From an uncultured Gemmatimonadales bacterium (lineage in GTDB: Bacteria > Gemmatimonadota > Gemmatimonadetes > Gemmatimonadales > GWC2-71-9): 64,000 nucleotides of DNA. Location: assembly GCA_965651715.1 (NCBI GenBank), contig CBFGTB010000001.1, positions 26,938 to 90,937 on the forward strand. Reading direction: 5' to 3'. Positions within the stretch are counted from its first letter, which is position 1, and each line of letters begins with the position of its first letter. A program made the translations under genes and the position numbers. Below, one piece after another: positions 49,309-54,543 of the stretch. The notes beneath the pieces are model-generated. The model worked only from the letters and a program-made list of their open reading frames with translations, was not told where the DNA came from and searched no databases.

Positions 49309-50499
49309 TCAGTACGCGGCGATCCCGGTGATCTCCTGCCCCAGGATCAGCGAGTGCATGTCGTGAGTCCCCTCATAGGTATAGACGCTCTCAAGGTTGG
49401 CCAGATGGCGCATCGAGTGATACTCGATCAGAATGCCGTTGGCCCCCAGCAACCGGCGCGCCTCGCGGGCCACCTCGCAGGCCATGTCGACATTGTTGCG
49501 CTTGGCGAGCGACACCTGCTGCGGAGTCATGGTGCCACGGTCCTTGAGCCGCCCGAGCTGCAACACCAGGAACTGGGCCTTGGTGATCTCGGTGAGCATG
49601 GTCGCCAGACGGGTCTGCTGCAACTGGGTGGCGGCGATGGGGCGATCGAACATCACCCGGTTGGCCGCGTAGCGACGCGCCTCGTCGTAGCACGCCATCG
49701 CCGCGCCGACGCCGCCCCAGGCGATGCCGTAGCGCGCCTGGGTGAGGCACATCAGCGGCGACTTCATCCCGCCGGAGTGGGGCAGCAGGGCGTCCTTGGG
49801 AACATGCACGTCCTGCAGGTGCAGCTCGCTGGTGTCGCTGGCCCGAAGCGACAGCTTGCCCTTCTGGTCCTTGGCGGTGAACCCGGGAGTGTCGGTGGGC
49901 ACAATGAAGCCGCGCACACTCTTGGGGTCGGCGATGTCACCGGTCTTGGCCCAGACGATCGCCACGGTGGCCTGCGACCCGTTGGTGATCCACATCTTGG
50001 TGCCGTTGAGCACCCAGCCGTCGGCGGTCTCCCGCGCGGTGGTGATCATCCCGCCGGGGTTGGAGCCGAAATCGGGTTCGGTCAGTCCGAAGCAGCCGAT
50101 CTCCTCGCCGCTCGCCAACCGCGGCAACCAGTGCGCCTTCTGGGCTTCACTGCCGAAGGCGAAGATGGGATACATCACCAGGGCGCCCTGCACCGAGGCG
50201 AAGGAGCGAATGCCGCTGTCGCCCCGCTCCAGTTCCTGCATGATCAGGCCGTAGGCCACGTTGTTGAGCCCGGCACAGCCGTACTCTTCGGGCAGATTGG
50301 CGCCGAACAGCCCCAGCTCGGCCATGCCCGGAATCAGTTCCTTGGGAAAGCGCCCCTCGATGTAGGCCGGCCCGATGGCGGGCACCAGCGCGTCGCTGAC
50401 CCACTGACGCACCGTGTCGCGCACCGCGCGCTCTTCCTCCGACAACAACGAGTCGATGTCATAGAAATCGACGCCGGTGTATTCCGACGAACCCGCCAT
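49309..50499 (-). CDS. gcdH: Glutaryl-CoA dehydrogenase-type acyl-CoA dehydrogenase (copy 1)
   Basis: 396 aa with 'GCFGLTEPDFGSNP' and 'YTYEGTHDMHSLILGQEITGIAAY' at the C-terminus. Adjacent to etfBA. Confidence 0.85.
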   Translation of the reverse strand: MAGSSEYTGVDFYDIDSLLSEEERAVRDTVRQWVSDALVPAIGPAYIEGRFPKELIPGMAELGLFGANLPEEYGCAGLNNVAYGLIMQELERGDSGIRSFASVQGALVMYPIFAFGSEAQKAHWLPRLASGEEIGCFGLTEPDFGSNPGGMITTARETADGWVLNGTKMWITNGSQATVAIVWAKTGDIADPKSVRGFIVPTDTPGFTAKDQKGKLSLRASDTSELHLQDVHVPKDALLPHSGGMKSPLMCLTQARYGIAWGGVGAAMACYDEARRYAANRVMFDRPIAATQLQQTRLATMLTEITKAQFLVLQLGRLKDRGTMTPQQVSLAKRNNVDMACEVAREARRLLGANGILIEYHSMRHLANLESVYTYEGTHDMHSLILGQEITGIAAY

Positions 50500-50546
50500 G
50501 CGTACCCATCCCCGGTAAAAGTCCGCCGGGAAGATAACAACGGGGT

Positions 50547-50569
50547 CGGGGCGGCCCCGCGACGCCCCG
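50547..50569 (-). terminator. Possible terminator hairpin after propeller gene P1
   Basis: 7-bp stem CGGGGCG / CGCCCCG with a 9-nt loop, 15 nt past the stop. Followed in gene sense by ACCCCGUUGUUAUCUU. Confidence 0.3.
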
Positions 50570-50583
50570 CGCCGGGCCGATGA

Positions 50584-51630
50584 TCAGCGCCCCGGGGCCG
50601 CCGCCCACCAGCGCAAGCCAGTCACCGTGGGCACCGGGTCATGACTCTCAAGGATGAACCGTTCACCATCGTAGGCCATCGCTGCAAAACGGCCCGGCAG
50701 TGCCATGCTGCCGCGGTAGTCACAGTCGGACAGGGCGTAACGGTCGAGGTGACGGCCCCGGTCCTCACCACCGCCGTTGGCCAGCACGATCACTGTGGAG
50801 TCGACAAGTGCGATGGCGCTGACCGAAAATGTCGGTTGGCTGACCGGTTGGGTGGGATAGGGTTGCCCGCTGACCAGTTTGCCGATGCAGCGATGGTCGA
50901 GTCCCTGGTACACCACCAGCAGATTGCCATAGGGATAGGCCATCGCCCATACCGCGCCACCATTCGAGGCCACCACGACACTGCGGGCAAAGTCGGGCAG
51001 CGCGCCCAAAGCGGCGAGTGGTGGCGGCCGGGATTCGACCACCGCACCAGTGGTACTCAGCCGGAGCAGCGTGGTCGTGGCGCCACTCGACACCACCACC
51101 GGTTCATTGTTGACTAATGCGAGGCCGGCGAGGCGCTCGGCGGCGAGCGGAATCAATGTCGCAGTACCGCCGGTGTCGTCGAGGGCGGTGAGCCGGACTA
51201 CATCGGGGTCGGCCGCCCAGGTCATCCCTCGCTGATCGAATTGGAGTCCGAAGTTGCCGCGGAACTCGCCCGGCCCCTCACCGGTCCCGCCCGACGTCCA
51301 GCGTAACTGCCCGGTGCTGTCGAACTGCTTGACCCGATCGTCGCCGTAGTCGTAGGTCGCGAACCGACCGCCGCCCCCCACCAGCGTCCGCGGCATCAAA
51401 AGCAGCGTGTCATCGGCGGAGCCGCCGATCACAAACGCCGTGTCCCACGTCCCCGCCAACAGGTGCCGTGTCGGCGTTGCCAGCTCGGGCAACGGGTCCC
51501 AGGTGGCGGCGCCATCAGCGGGCCCGCCGGACCGGCTACAGGCAAGAAGCCCGAATGCCAGCGCCGCGAACCGCAGAGGGGAGATACATGTGCGTGGCCG
51601 CCATCCCCCCTCGGGTTCATTGGCGCTCAT
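50584..51630 (-). CDS. Beta-propeller (NHL / 6-bladed-like) lipoprotein, paralog P1
   Basis: Track ORF 50584..51825, trimmed to ATG 51630, which lies 12 nt after GGGAGAGG. Lipobox 'FGLLAC' and blade motif 'GGTGEGPGEFRGNFGL'. The upstream 65 codons are translated repeat DNA. Confidence 0.65.
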   Translation of the reverse strand: MSANEPEGGWRPRTCISPLRFAALAFGLLACSRSGGPADGAATWDPLPELATPTRHLLAGTWDTAFVIGGSADDTLLLMPRTLVGGGGRFATYDYGDDRVKQFDSTGQLRWTSGGTGEGPGEFRGNFGLQFDQRGMTWAADPDVVRLTALDDTGGTATLIPLAAERLAGLALVNNEPVVVSSGATTTLLRLSTTGAVVESRPPPLAALGALPDFARSVVVASNGGAVWAMAYPYGNLLVVYQGLDHRCIGKLVSGQPYPTQPVSQPTFSVSAIALVDSTVIVLANGGGEDRGRHLDRYALSDCDYRGSMALPGRFAAMAYDGERFILESHDPVPTVTGLRWWAAAPGR

Positions 51631-51841
51631 TCGTGGTGTGCGCCTCTCCCACAGTGTGACCATCCGCGAATGGACGCGAATACACGCGAATACTGCCCCA
51701 GCTCCCCTTCGCACTCTTTCGCGTTCATTCGTGTTCATTCGCGGTTTGCGCCTCTCCCACAGTGTGACCATCCGCGAATGGACGCGAATGCACGCGAATA
51801 CTGCCCCAACCCCCCTGGCACTCATTCGCGTTCATTCACGG
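51626..51841. repeat. Two tandem 108-bp modules, each an imperfect ~27-bp inverted repeat (hairpin) + CACAGTGTG palindrome + GGGAGAGG
   Basis: 51641 and 51749 carry the same cgcctctcccacagtgtgaccatccgcgaatggacgcgaat[a/g]cacgcgaatactgcccca. Arms are 51664-51692 vs 51718-51744, and 51772-51800 vs 51821-51841. Confidence 0.9.
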
Positions 51842-51907
51842 ACCTCATTCGCGTCCATTCGCGTCCATTCGTGGACCTCATTCGCGTCCATTCGCGTTCA
51901 TTCGTGG
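51842..51907. repeat. Two in-phase 33-bp tandem units (acctcattcgcgtccattcgcg[t/t]ccattcgtgg), each three ~10-11-bp CATTCG[CT]G subrepeats
   Basis: Units 51842-51874 and 51875-51907 differ at one position. Confidence 0.9.
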
Positions 51908-51968
51908 ACCCGCATTCTCCAAGCGAGGGGATCATCCACCAATCCAGCCGGGGCAACTCCATCGTCGA

Positions 51969-53084
51969 TCATCGTTTCCCCACAATCTCATACAGCACGA
52001 CATCCTGGAGGCCGTCCGCATCTTCGTCCGTCAGGAGGAGATGATTGCCGCCAAACCAGCGCAGCGACTGAGTGGTCTTCATGGGCAGCATGGACACAGT
52101 AGGGCTACCGCTCCGGAGCACGGCAAGGCGTCGTTCGGCCGCCGGACCAGTCACGACATCAACGACAACATCCCCCGCATCCGACACACGCAGATCCACG
52201 ACCGGGGAATAGACCCGAGGGACCAGGTCCCGACGATCCATCGCCTGATACAGTTCGTGCAGCACACGCCCTGCACGCCCAAGTCGGAAATTGATCGCAC
52301 TGTCACGAACCGATCCGGGAATTGGACTGGGCGTCAGCGCGAGCCGCCGGTTGAACACCGTATCACCGTTCACTGACACCACAACGACCCGGATCTCACT
52401 GTTCCCATCAACAGGCATCATGGGGACTGCCTCCGCGCCGAATTTCCCATTGGCTGAAAACGCGATCCGCGGCGTGTGACAGTACGGCACAAAGATCGAG
52501 ACACTTCCCTTCTCGGTTGGCCGCCGCAGCGAGCATGAGGCCTTGGGCCACAGTAGAACAGTCGTCGGTGGTTCGCCCTCCTCGCGACGTATGGAGTAGA
52601 TCGTCGACCCGCTGTCGCCGCGTGACTGCCACCAGCTCGCCCCTCCTGCTGGTGCGGCAGCCCGGAGACGAGGTGACGCGAGACCCGCCGGCGCCCGAAT
52701 CGTCGCAGTGGAATCCACTCGGCCGGACGCATCGAAAGACGTGCTCCGCTGCAGGGTCCAGTCGACAACCCACAGGCCGTTCGGGCGAACGAACAACTGC
52801 GCCACATTGCGAATATCGCCCGGCCCGGCCCCCGAAGCCCCAACGGTCCGCGCCTTGGTCGCCCCCGGAACAAAGCCGACAATGACACCATCCTCCGGCT
52901 GCCAGATCCAGATGGCGCCATCGGCGCCAACACCCGCTTCGGCCACACGGCTCAGATCGTTGGCGGTGGCCGAGATGCGGCGCAATTCCCTGAGAGTGCC
53001 CTCTTGGGCCGACATATGTGGTGGGACCGTCACACATAACAGTGCGGCGCCAACCATCACGCGGACAATCAGCGCGAGCCCCAT
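51969..53084 (-). CDS. Beta-propeller family secreted protein, paralog P2
   Basis: Track ORF 51969..53204, trimmed to ATG 53084 (MGLALIVRVMVGAALLCVTV...). A later ATG is also possible. Motif 'GASGAGPGDIRNV'. AT-richer than its neighbours. Confidence 0.6.
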   Translation of the reverse strand: MGLALIVRVMVGAALLCVTVPPHMSAQEGTLRELRRISATANDLSRVAEAGVGADGAIWIWQPEDGVIVGFVPGATKARTVGASGAGPGDIRNVAQLFVRPNGLWVVDWTLQRSTSFDASGRVDSTATIRAPAGLASPRLRAAAPAGGASWWQSRGDSGSTIYSIRREEGEPPTTVLLWPKASCSLRRPTEKGSVSIFVPYCHTPRIAFSANGKFGAEAVPMMPVDGNSEIRVVVVSVNGDTVFNRRLALTPSPIPGSVRDSAINFRLGRAGRVLHELYQAMDRRDLVPRVYSPVVDLRVSDAGDVVVDVVTGPAAERRLAVLRSGSPTVSMLPMKTTQSLRWFGGNHLLLTDEDADGLQDVVLYEIVGKR

Positions 53085-53154
53085 CCGCGAATGGACGCGA
53101 ATACACGCGAATACTGCCCCAACTCCCTTGACACTCATTCGCGCAGATTCGCGG
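53085..53154. repeat. Third copy of the hairpin module, abutting the P2 start codon
   Basis: 53085-53113 ccgcgaatggacgcgaatacacgcgaata is identical to 51664-51692. The partner arm is 53132-53154. The CACAGTGTG/GGGAGAGG tail is replaced by P2 coding sequence. Confidence 0.9.
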
Positions 53155-53319
53155 ACCTCATTCGCGTCCATTCGCGTCCATTCGTGGATCCCCTTCGCAC
53201 TCATTCGCGTTCATTCGCGGACCTCATTCGCGTCCATTCGCGTTCATTCGTGGATCTCATTCGCGTCCATTCGCGTCCATTCGTGGATCTCGTTCGCGTC
53301 CCTTCGCTGACCCGTTCGG
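53155..53319. repeat. Five in-phase 33-bp tandem units of the CATTCGCG repeat (last unit degenerate)
   Basis: Units are 53155-53187, 53188-53220, 53221-53253, 53254-53286 and 53287-53319. The last two overlap the 3' end of the acyl-CoA dehydrogenase ORF. Confidence 0.9.
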
Positions 53320-54543
53320 ACCGGCCGGCGTGAACGCCGCCGTCCCGGTCACCGCCTGGCCCACGATCAGCGTGTGCATGTCGTGGGTACCTTCGTAGGT
53401 ATAGACACTTTCGAGGTTCGCCATGTGGCGCATGCTGTGCCATCCCCCCAGGATGCCGTTGGCACCCAGCAGACGCCGCGCTTCGCGGGCGACGTCGCAG
53501 GCCATGTCGACGTTGTGACGTTTGGCCAGCGACACCTGGGCCGGCGTCGCCTGGCCCGCGTCCATCAGCCGTCCCAGCCGCATCGCCAGCAACTGCCCGT
53601 TGGTCACCCGGGTGATCATCTCGGCCAGGCGTTCCTGCTGGAGCTGGGTCGCCGCCAGCGGGGCGCCGAACATCACCCGGGACCTGGCGTACTGAAGTGC
53701 CTCATCGTAGCACGCCATCGCCGCGCCGAGACTGCCCCAGACGATCCCGTAGCGGGCCTGGGTCAGACATTGCAGCGGTGACTTGACGCCGGCCGAGAGC
53801 GGCAGGATCGCATCGCGCCCCAGTCGCACCTGGTCGAAGGTCATCGCGCTCGACTCCGACACCCGGAGTGAGTGCTTGTCGTCGATCCGGTGCACCGTCA
53901 CACCCGGGGCGTCGGTCGGCACCAGAAAGCCGCGGATACTCCGTGCCTCGTCGCTGCCGTTGGTCTTGGCCCAGACCACCGCGACATCGGCCGATGGGCC
54001 GTTGGAGAGCCACTTCTTGGTGCCGTGCAGCCGCCAGCCGTCGGCGGTTTCGGTGGCATCGGTGATCATCCCCGCCGGGTTGCTGCCGAAGTCCGGCTCG
54101 GTGAGTCCGAAACACCCCACCACCTCGCCGCGCGCCATCGCCGGCAGCCAGCGGGTCTTCTGCTCCTCGCTGCCGAAGGCCCGGATCGGATACATCACCA
54201 GCGAACTCTGCACCGACGCAAACGACCGAATGCCGCTGTCACAGCGCTCGAGTTCCTGCATGATCAGCCCGTACATGGTCGCGCTGTGCTCGGGCCCGCC
54301 GTAGCGCGCCGGGGTGGTCGGCCCGAGGCAGCCGAGGGCGCCCAGTTCGGTGGCCAGTCCCTCGGGGAATACGCCGGCGAAGTACCACTCGCTGATCCGA
54401 GGCATCAGCCGCGCCTCGACCCAGCTCCGGACCCGATCGCGCAGCGCCCGTTCCTCATCGCTCAGCAAATCATCGAGCGCCAGAAAATCGGGGGCCGTGA
54501 AGGGCGGCAGCGGCGGCGGATACAACGCGGCAAGCGGCTTCAT
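53257..54543 (-). CDS. Glutaryl-CoA dehydrogenase-type acyl-CoA dehydrogenase (copy 2) with a repeat-encoded C-terminal tail
   Basis: Start MKPLAALYPPP at ATG 54543 (ATGA overlap with the SprT stop). Colinear with copy 1 through '...YTYEGTHDMHTLIVGQAVTGTAAF', then 24 extra residues. Confidence 0.85.
   Translation of the reverse strand: MKPLAALYPPPLPPFTAPDFLALDDLLSDEERALRDRVRSWVEARLMPRISEWYFAGVFPEGLATELGALGCLGPTTPARYGGPEHSATMYGLIMQELERCDSGIRSFASVQSSLVMYPIRAFGSEEQKTRWLPAMARGEVVGCFGLTEPDFGSNPAGMITDATETADGWRLHGTKKWLSNGPSADVAVVWAKTNGSDEARSIRGFLVPTDAPGVTVHRIDDKHSLRVSESSAMTFDQVRLGRDAILPLSAGVKSPLQCLTQARYGIVWGSLGAAMACYDEALQYARSRVMFGAPLAATQLQQERLAEMITRVTNGQLLAMRLGRLMDAGQATPAQVSLAKRHNVDMACDVAREARRLLGANGILGGWHSMRHMANLESVYTYEGTHDMHTLIVGQAVTGTAAFTPAGPNGSAKGRERDPRMDANGRE

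Follow-up and report, generated by a model that had tools for sequence, protein, structure and literature searches.

The two patches of short repeats that lie on either side of the propeller gene P2, one of them at the start of its neighbour P1, in a 64-kb stretch of DNA from an uncultured Gemmatimonadales bacterium (contig CBFGTB010000001.1, positions 26,938 to 90,937; the whole stretch is called the window, and positions given without a locus number are coordinates of the window) are probably non-autonomous, gene-less remnants of a widespread family of selfish nuclease cassettes. They would be similar to REPINs, the doublets of repetitive extragenic palindromes (REPs), and to miniature inverted-repeat transposable elements (MITEs), and would serve here as substrates for recombination. 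A full unit of the family would consist of a left (L) arm, a gene of about 125 codons for a GxxExxY nuclease (PDDEXK_3, with a PD-(D/E)XK fold), and an inverted right (R) arm. Our work shows that (i) the arms travel with the nuclease gene, that (ii) internal deletion leaves short L-loop-R hairpins, which are far more common than intact cassettes, and that (iii) the units nest in one another and are amplified in tandem. The window carries gene-less units only, tandemly amplified as L-loop-R-spacer units and as tandem L arms, and these repeats form three gene boundaries, i. e. the stop of the acyl-CoA dehydrogenase gene DH2 and the starts of P2 and P1. An earlier note on the same DNA had taken the repeats for a homogenised, mobile or regulatory non-coding element; that they are non-coding, homogenised and of the mobile-element type is supported by our analysis.

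The arms and the GxxExxY nuclease gene

An L arm is a run of CGCGAAT-type words read in gene sense, and an R arm is the reverse complement of an L arm. In the window, an arm is made up of three CGCGAAT or CACGAAT words with a spacing of 10 bp (a triplet arm); that direct words recur at one helical turn had already been noticed in the earlier note. The arm is found far beyond this genome: the 25-mer CGAATGRACGCGAATRNACGCGAAT is present in at least 120 stretches of species-representative genomes. Most of the matches listed come from Verrucomicrobiota and Planctomycetota; others belong to Kiritimatiellia, Lentisphaerae, Chloroflexota, Acidobacteriota, Armatimonadota, Nitrospirota, Proteobacteria and Gemmatimonadaceae, and the sequence also occurs in the isolate genomes of Luteolibacter, Pelagicoccus and Geminisphaera. 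The element is also present in the complete genomes of Luteolibacter sp. Populi (CP161812), of a member of the Thermoguttaceae (OY762224) and of a member of the Pyrinomonadaceae (OZ243957). Some metagenome-assembled genomes contain many copies each. In 120 genome loci the arm is nearly always exactly three words long, and an inverted triplet is usually found 20-700 nt away. The family consensus is three 7-nt words CRCNRAN spaced by 9-11 nt, represented by CGCGAAT in the window, and the window arms fit this triplet form, which is seen both in the 120 loci and in the flanks of GxxExxY genes. They also have inverted partners within about 20-700 nt (pairs 51664-51691/51718-51744, 51772-51799/51822-51842 and 53085-53112/53134-53155), with which they form hairpins. 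Long unbroken tandem arrays with 8-16 copies of a 10-nt word were observed in loci L053 (2254-2410), L059 (1568-1704), L074 (3820-3906) and L118 (3191-3267), and the L053 array grades from CGCGAAT words into CGCGGAT words.

In several of the loci from other genomes, two arms enclose a gene. A complete open reading frame (ORF) of about 125-140 codons is present in L020, L006, L062 and L012, and frameshifted copies were found in L036 and L094. The product is a GxxExxY protein (TIGR04256, E 1e-35; PF13366, PDDEXK_3). Each of the 15 GxxExxY ORFs or remnants in the arm loci is flanked by an arm on one side or on both, and the arms adjoin the ORF within a few nucleotides: they stand directly before the start codon or include it, and follow directly after the stop codon. 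In several sub-families the start codon is located inside the L arm, and the GxxExxY proteins in the databases begin with an arm-encoded MNANxRE; in others (L171, L180, L206), the arm is part of the 5' untranslated region (UTR). Short hairpins that retain a truncated remnant of the ORF were identified in L029, L080 and L065. In the other genomes, about 139 arm clusters compare with about 15 that have the ORF; roughly 90% of the clusters are gene-less.

The association also holds when it is approached from the side of the protein. For this purpose, metagenome loci were fetched by two core peptide patterns rather than by arms, and the genes with enough flanking sequence were counted: 50 of 54 GxxExxY genes have at least three copies of a 7-nt word with a period of 9-11 in a flank, as compared to 7 of 364 window tiles (2%) in the control. 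Close GxxExxY relatives use the words CGCGAAT, CGCTAAT, CGCCAAT or CACGAAT, and more distant ones CGCGAAG, CACGAAG, CGCGGAT, CACGGAT, CGCAGAT, CGCCGAT, CACGAAA or CACAGAC. The two arms of a gene agree in their word in most of the lineages that were examined (19 of 30 two-flank cases in an automated call), and the word is shared with the nearest protein neighbour in 26 of 29 cases. Thus, the word tracks the phylogeny of the protein, and we conclude that the ORF and its arms are inherited as one unit. In locus L017 (3880-3995), arms of CACAGAG/CTCTGTG words come after a divergent GxxExxY gene that has about 29% identity to the main group; the architecture reaches distant members of the family.

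These observations bear on the idea that a conserved DNA-binding protein of the host, for instance a nucleoid or topology factor, binds to the arms as an array of sites, and that the nuclease gene is just a frequent neighbour. The analogy would be the bacterial interspersed mosaic elements (BIMEs) of E. coli, which are mosaics of REPs and bind IHF and gyrase. The window patches are similar to BIMEs, as arms of alternating orientation and fixed linker motifs are arranged between genes transcribed in one direction; they differ in their sequence, in being built from words, and in that the arms have no known binding protein. A host factor would also fit the spacing of the words by helical turns, the preservation of the words without a constraint on pairing (see below), and an arm that hardly changes between GxxExxY groups of only about 45% identity. 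However, with a single factor one would not expect the word to vary among cassette lineages in the same phyla and to follow the nuclease phylogeny. The arms also lie within a few nucleotides of the nuclease ORF, and we regard this explanation as very improbable.

Units are found inside as well as next to each other. Hairpins of other word families are nested in the loops of L042, L054, L070 and L119. Tandem arrays of cassettes with junctions of the type R arm/A-rich-GGAGG spacer/L arm are present in L138, L150 and L154, and the spacers of the window are the counterpart of these purine-rich junctions. Moreover, the copy number of the unit differs between near-identical contigs from different samples of the human-gut metagenome (L189-L209). 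In these loci, direct arrays of a 53-bp hairpin unit were seen on both flanks of GxxExxY (e. g. L189 985-1166 and 1554-1742), with 97% identity over 182 nt. In the window, a GxxExxY hidden Markov model (HMM) had no match in any ORF of at least 40 amino acids.

Repeat anatomy and gene boundaries in the window

Exact copies of CGCGAATG occur 19 times in the 64 kb, and all of them are located within 51665-51896 or 53086-53275. By chance, 6.8 copies would be expected, and a count of 19 was reached in none of 100 shuffles. The region 51768-51910 has a second copy with 90% identity at 53081-53223, which agrees with the earlier note, in which the element was seen to recur at 53085-53319 and its core was not seen elsewhere in the window. 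The P1 and P2 proteins have only a marginal likeness (35% over 51 amino acids, E 1e-3), so that the repeat DNA is indeed, as had been claimed, much more alike than the genes it flanks. The features of the first patch (repeat A, 51611-51910) and of the second (repeat B, 53081-53312) are collected in Table 1. The 108-bp tandem modules reported previously are real, with a period that starts at 51611 and not at 51627, and the 33-bp units of three subrepeats were recovered by Tandem Repeats Finder (TRF) as well. The inverted repeats in the modules were found as pairs that are 85% (51664-51690/51718-51744) and 89% (51772-51798/51718-51744) complementary, besides numerous cross-pairs; the third "right arm" (51822-51842) has only two words. 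The 9-bp sequence CACAGTGTG is present too, in a 4+1+4 arrangement rather than as a perfect palindrome.

Table 1. Repeat features and the P2 gene in the window.
Feature	Position	Strand	Details and basis
108-bp tandem unit, x2.1	51611-51837		90% matches; TRF
33-bp tandem unit, x2.7	51823-51910		92% matches; TRF
33-bp tandem unit, x5.2	53136-53307		TRF
Degenerate L arm	51611-51637	-	gene sense CCACGAATGAGCGCCAATGAACCCGA; holds P1 start codon 51630-51628; aligns with arm 51719-51744
Spacer 1	51638-51663	-	Shine-Dalgarno (SD)-like GGGAGAGG 51650-51643; CACAGTGTG 51650-51658; ATG 51663-51661 adjoining R arm
R arm 1	51664-51691	-	plus strand CCGCGAATGGACGCGAATACACGCGAAT; three words
C-rich loop 1	51692-51717	.	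sequence; hairpin in fold
L arm	51718-51744	-	gene sense CCGCGAATGAACACGAATGAACGCGAA; inverted-pair search
Spacer 2, copy of spacer 1	51745-51771	-	GGGAGAGG at 51758-51751; 108-bp period
R arm 2	51772-51799	-	plus strand CCGCGAATGGACGCGAATGCACGCGAAT
C-rich loop 2	51800-51821	.	sequence
Tandem L arms, 33-bp period	51822-51910	-	two-word unit 51822-51842; three-word units 51843-51875 and 51876-51908
P2 gene	51969-53084	-	ATG 53084-53082 adjoins R arm
R arm, repeat B	53085-53112	-	repeat and word searches
Loop, repeat B	53113-53133	.	sequence, fold
Six tandem L arms, 33-bp period, last degenerate	53134-53312	-	TRF; TGA 53259-53257 inside one arm

On the minus strand, DH2 is followed by six tandem L arms, a loop, an R arm and the ATG of P2. 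The stop codon of P2 is followed by three L arms, a loop, an R arm, a spacer with GGGAGAGG and an L arm, and then a second loop, R arm and GGGAGAGG spacer lead to the degenerate L arm with the ATG of P1, to P1 itself and to the second dehydrogenase gene, DH1. It follows from this anatomy that the 108-bp module is one L-loop-R-spacer unit and that the 33-bp unit is one arm. P2 is bracketed by the inverted arms 51847-51875 and 53084-53112, which are 90% complementary and 1208 nt apart. The word CGCGAATGA with 10-nt spacing and GAA or GAG spacers contains overlapping ATGA, i. e. start and stop, in all three frames (locus L036 3046-3082; window 51843-51908); this three-frame property is not true of several other word families, and the common variant CGCTAATGA has an extra TAA. 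Two other candidates were rejected: a CRISPR array, as the 33-bp units adjoin directly with no spacers between them, and, by inspection, an integron attC site, as the GTTRRRY core is missing from the arm ends, (A/T)(A/C)CCGCG ... CGCGG(T/A)(T/C) (no search for an integrase was made).

How two of the three boundaries are built becomes clear from the comparison with related genes. DH2 has lost its usual stop codon (the relatives end in ...AAY(R/K)*) and continues (53257-53330) for 23 amino acids to a TGA inside an L arm. For P1, the earlier note was right in placing GGGAGAGG 12 nt before the ATG, on the minus strand at 51650-51643, and in regarding the ATG (51630-51628) as a part of the repeat, where it lies in the degenerate L arm. 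In the alignment of the P1 homologues, their usual start MRT is opposite PRT of P1, 11-12 residues downstream of the arm-encoded ATG (window 51594-51630), and the homologues begin with a short lipoprotein signal about 12 residues past the position of this ATG. Thus, the first 11-12 residues of P1 (MSANEPEGGWR) and the SD-like GGGAGAGG are derived from the repeat.

If start codons are encoded by arms, it may be asked whether the repeats are coding sequence that adds repeat peptides to the N- or C-termini of the flanking proteins, be it as a MNANERE-type leader or in the 413-codon ORF that runs through repeat A. Both periods, 33 and 108 bp, are divisible by three, the ORF is open from 50584 to 51825, and the GxxExxY proteins in the databases do start with MNANxRE from the arm. 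Yet the same DNA is used in both orientations and in all frames, the arm serves as 5' UTR in the sub-families mentioned above, the R arms and the gene-less hairpins are non-coding, and the P1 homologues start with their lipoprotein signal about 12 residues downstream of the arm-encoded ATG. There is next to no chance that coding function explains the repeats.

A cis-regulatory element dedicated to the propeller genes has more in its favour: alternative hairpins in the 5' leader could hide or expose the SD sequence and the AUG of P1 and P2, or set the stability of the mRNA, as the earlier note had suggested. On the gene strand, the predicted folds are stable (-160.8 kcal/mol, z -4.3 against shuffles for the first repeat region; -134.6 kcal/mol, z -3.9 for the second). 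Each R arm can pair with an upstream or a downstream L arm, the downstream L arm holds an ATG and the intervening spacer holds GGGAGAGG, and the start codon of P1 itself is inside an arm. However, the same arms are located beside unrelated genes in several phyla, at 5' and 3' gene ends alike; with a crude gene model, the sites are mostly intergenic, and their neighbours are arranged in tandem in 36, convergently in 27 and divergently in 22 cases, i. e. without preference. The P1 and P2 homologues in related genomes have no arms, and for this reason an association of the repeat with propeller genes was rejected. Partner arms show no compensatory covariation at variable positions. Rfam gave no match for the window at the gathering score, only chance-level matches for the repeat region at E values up to 10, and no family over the arms in 10 canonical loci from other genomes, in line with the earlier note, which had not recognised a described REP, MITE or riboswitch family. 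Promoter and terminator scans of the repeat region gave no signal above shuffles, and intrinsic terminators (a GC-rich stem followed by a T run) have no site in 50400-53500. Copies that are scattered over at least 120 stretches of genomes, beside unrelated genes and with no tie to the propeller family, are what the earlier note had named as evidence against its proposal, and the association found is with GxxExxY genes; the reading as a P1/P2-specific regulator is thus weakened. A dedicated regulator of P1 is unlikely, and we give the wider idea of a propeller-gene element a slim chance. A local side effect on the expression of P1 and P2 is possible, brought about by the donated SD sequence and ATG and by the stable hairpins, and would be a by-product rather than the purpose of the element.

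The repeats mark a segment that is rearranged and variable between strains. P1 and P2 are flanked by two paralogous genes for glutaryl-CoA dehydrogenase-like acyl-CoA dehydrogenases (49309-50499 and 53320-54540), followed by etfB, etfA and nadB, and this arrangement of dehydrogenase, etfB, etfA and nadB genes around the locus is kept in relatives. A named P1 homologue and the conserved synteny likewise point to a Gemmatimonadales genome. In a 97%-identical strain, represented by a contig of JGI 3300048101 with 97% identity in P1, DH2 is followed after only 257 nt by P1 and then by DH1; P2 is absent, and judged from the gene spacing there is no room for the repeat patches. In relatives with P1 homologues of 58-64% identity, the neighbourhood DH2-P-DH1 is kept, the P gene is on the opposite strand, and CGCGAAT arms are absent. 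Homologues of P2 elsewhere were found in three unrelated neighbourhoods, all of them without arms. Both the presence or absence of P2 between strains and the inversion of the P gene with respect to distant relatives could be the result of recombination between repeat copies, and the near-identical copies in the window may act mainly as substrates for homologous recombination. In distant relatives, the P1 homologue on the opposite strand is flanked by other inverted repeats of short words, i. e. TCGTTGG x3 against CCAACGA in locus L132 (3725-3755 and 4865-4890) and GGGGTGA/TCACCCC hairpins in L135 (1290-1400 and 2470-2560). Repeats and inversion seem to be concentrated in the interval that separates the two dehydrogenase paralogues.

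Conservation of the words and possible mobility of the units

In another reading, the arms would act at the level of RNA, i. e. they would pair in the transcript to a long stem around the ORF, similar to the intervening sequences in 23S rRNA that are excised by RNase III, and so control how the nuclease mRNA is processed or translated. In this case, the gene-less hairpins would be what is left of such stems, and would influence the stability or termination of mRNAs in the manner of REPs. Such an element is known from Coxiella, where a 428-nt intervening sequence (IVS) of the 23S rRNA, which contains an ORF (S23p) within the rRNA stem, is regarded as selfish (PMC4990558). Like the cassette, it has a small ORF of unknown role inside inverted repeats that are able to form a long stem; unlike it, the cassettes lie outside of rRNA and encode a protein with a different fold. 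The position of the arms directly before or over the start codon and directly after the stop codon, the joint change of the words on both arms between lineages and the strong folds also agree with an RNA stem. Nevertheless, partner arms of the CGCNAAT group are no more complementary to each other than shuffled partners, neither at spacer positions nor at position 4 of the word, and the first word of the L arm is mostly CGCTAAT as opposed to CGCGAAT in the R arm, which puts a mismatch into the centre of the word. What is conserved are the words and not their pairing. Moreover, neither the three tandem words spaced by 9-10 nt nor the CRCNRAN signature common to the word families is explained by a plain stem, and U-tract terminators were not found in 50400-53500. 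We therefore consider a function of the arms in RNA to be unlikely.

We favour the selfish cassette, in which a multimeric protein, most simply the nuclease of the cassette itself, would recognise the words on one face of the helix, and in which the units would spread by a route that leaves no target duplication, e. g. of the homing or recombination type. Several findings are at odds with this reading or limit it. The nuclease is tiny, no separate DNA-binding domain is recognisable in it, and binding or cutting of the arms is our proposal. A search for direct repeats of 2-8 nt at 13 boundary offsets in 106 arm pairs, in comparison with shuffled partners, gave no target-site duplication, and no pair of empty and filled sites was captured. 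Plasmids had no DNA match, GxxExxY is present on 3 of 72,556 plasmid records, and the 25-mer was found in 8 of 2.9 million viral contigs; despite the spread over several phyla, no horizontal vector is evident. In two different Verrucomicrobiota genomes (L020, 2086-2526, and L096, 700-1091), the cassette is located at the same site with the same neighbours, which fits long vertical persistence rather than frequent movement. The gene downstream of the cassette in both, with the N-terminus ...GLQWGDEGKGKIVDYL, is presumably purA, a reading that was not checked against a family library. Finally, our count of repeat copies in this genome covers the 64-kb window.

What is known of the protein leaves room for such an activity. 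The GxxExxY family comprises at least 7995 clusters at 90% identity with E values of 1e-10 or lower, and the alignment shows no variation in D, E and K of the PD..ExK motif. The AlphaFold2 model of the nuclease has a pLDDT of 89.6; its closest fold is Cas4 SSO0001 (E 2e-4, TM 0.55-0.59), followed by lambda exonuclease and the AdnAB and RecE nucleases. With the catalytic residues kept and a modelled fold similar to Cas4, the GxxExxY proteins are likely to be competent nucleases. A sequence search of the PDB returned T7 endonuclease I alone and without significance (E 0.19), so that a junction resolvase is no more than a lead, and the fold search favours the Cas4/lambda-exonuclease group. In the only survey entry that we found, PDDEXK_3 has the function "Unknown", and its clades are described as mixed, with multiple transfers (PMC3424549).

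In a bolder proposal, which we put forward tentatively and which may well prove wrong, the GxxExxY genes and their triplet arms would represent an unrecognised class of selfish elements that crosses phylum borders: a minimal nuclease would read three words spaced by helical turns in each inverted end, and would propagate the cassette as well as the gene-less hairpins by homing or recombination without target duplication. If this is true, the window would show the consequence, namely hairpins that rewire gene boundaries and the gene content between strains. In the searchable literature, we found no description of the arm sequence, the arm-encoded peptides or the function of GxxExxY; subscription literature and database comments were outside this search. 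The link to a defined and highly conserved DNA motif provides the GxxExxY family with a concrete substrate that can be tested, and it explains a class of hairpin repeats and spurious small ORFs (...IRVHSR..., MNANERE...) in Verrucomicrobiota, Planctomycetota, Chloroflexota and other phyla. For the window, a gene-specific regulatory story is replaced by one of genome dynamics, in which P1 owes its start codon and DH2 its stop codon to the repeats.

Comparison with known repeat families

Among the closest known counterparts are the REPIN-RAYT systems, which consist of REP doublets and their transposase, the REP-associated tyrosine transposase (PMC3337134). As in these systems, short extragenic repeats occur as inverted pairs that form a hairpin, many copies are non-autonomous, the gene presumed to mobilise them has the repeats on its own flanks, and the element can persist at a locus for a long time, as indicated by L020 and L096, in which the cassette occupies one and the same site. 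In contrast to REPs, the triplet arm is composed of three tandem direct words rather than of an imperfect palindrome, and has no GTAG head. The arms flank a PD-(D/E)XK GxxExxY gene instead of an IS200-like HUH tyrosine transposase (no search aimed at RAYT genes was made in the genome of the window), the nuclease is multi-copy, and the arm sequence is common to several phyla, whereas REPs are lineage-specific.

With MITEs, the units share the terminal inverted repeats around a small non-coding body, derivatives that resemble a gene-carrying unit after internal deletion (L029, L065, L080), the nesting of units in one another and their scatter over intergenic regions. They differ from them by terminal repeats that are composed of sub-repeats, by the lack of a DDE transposase and by the target-site duplication, which was not detected in 106 arm pairs. 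Gene-carrying units with the same arms as the gene-less ones exist, and their nuclease may mobilise the latter. Inverted ends built from sub-repeats are known from the Foldback (FB) elements of Drosophila, in which long inverted terminal repeats are arrays of short tandem sub-repeats with variable copy number, and which promote rearrangements. FB elements are eukaryotic, much larger and related to the units described here neither by sequence nor by protein; what they have in common with them are the inverted ends made from tandem sub-repeats, the variable number of these sub-repeats, and rearrangement.

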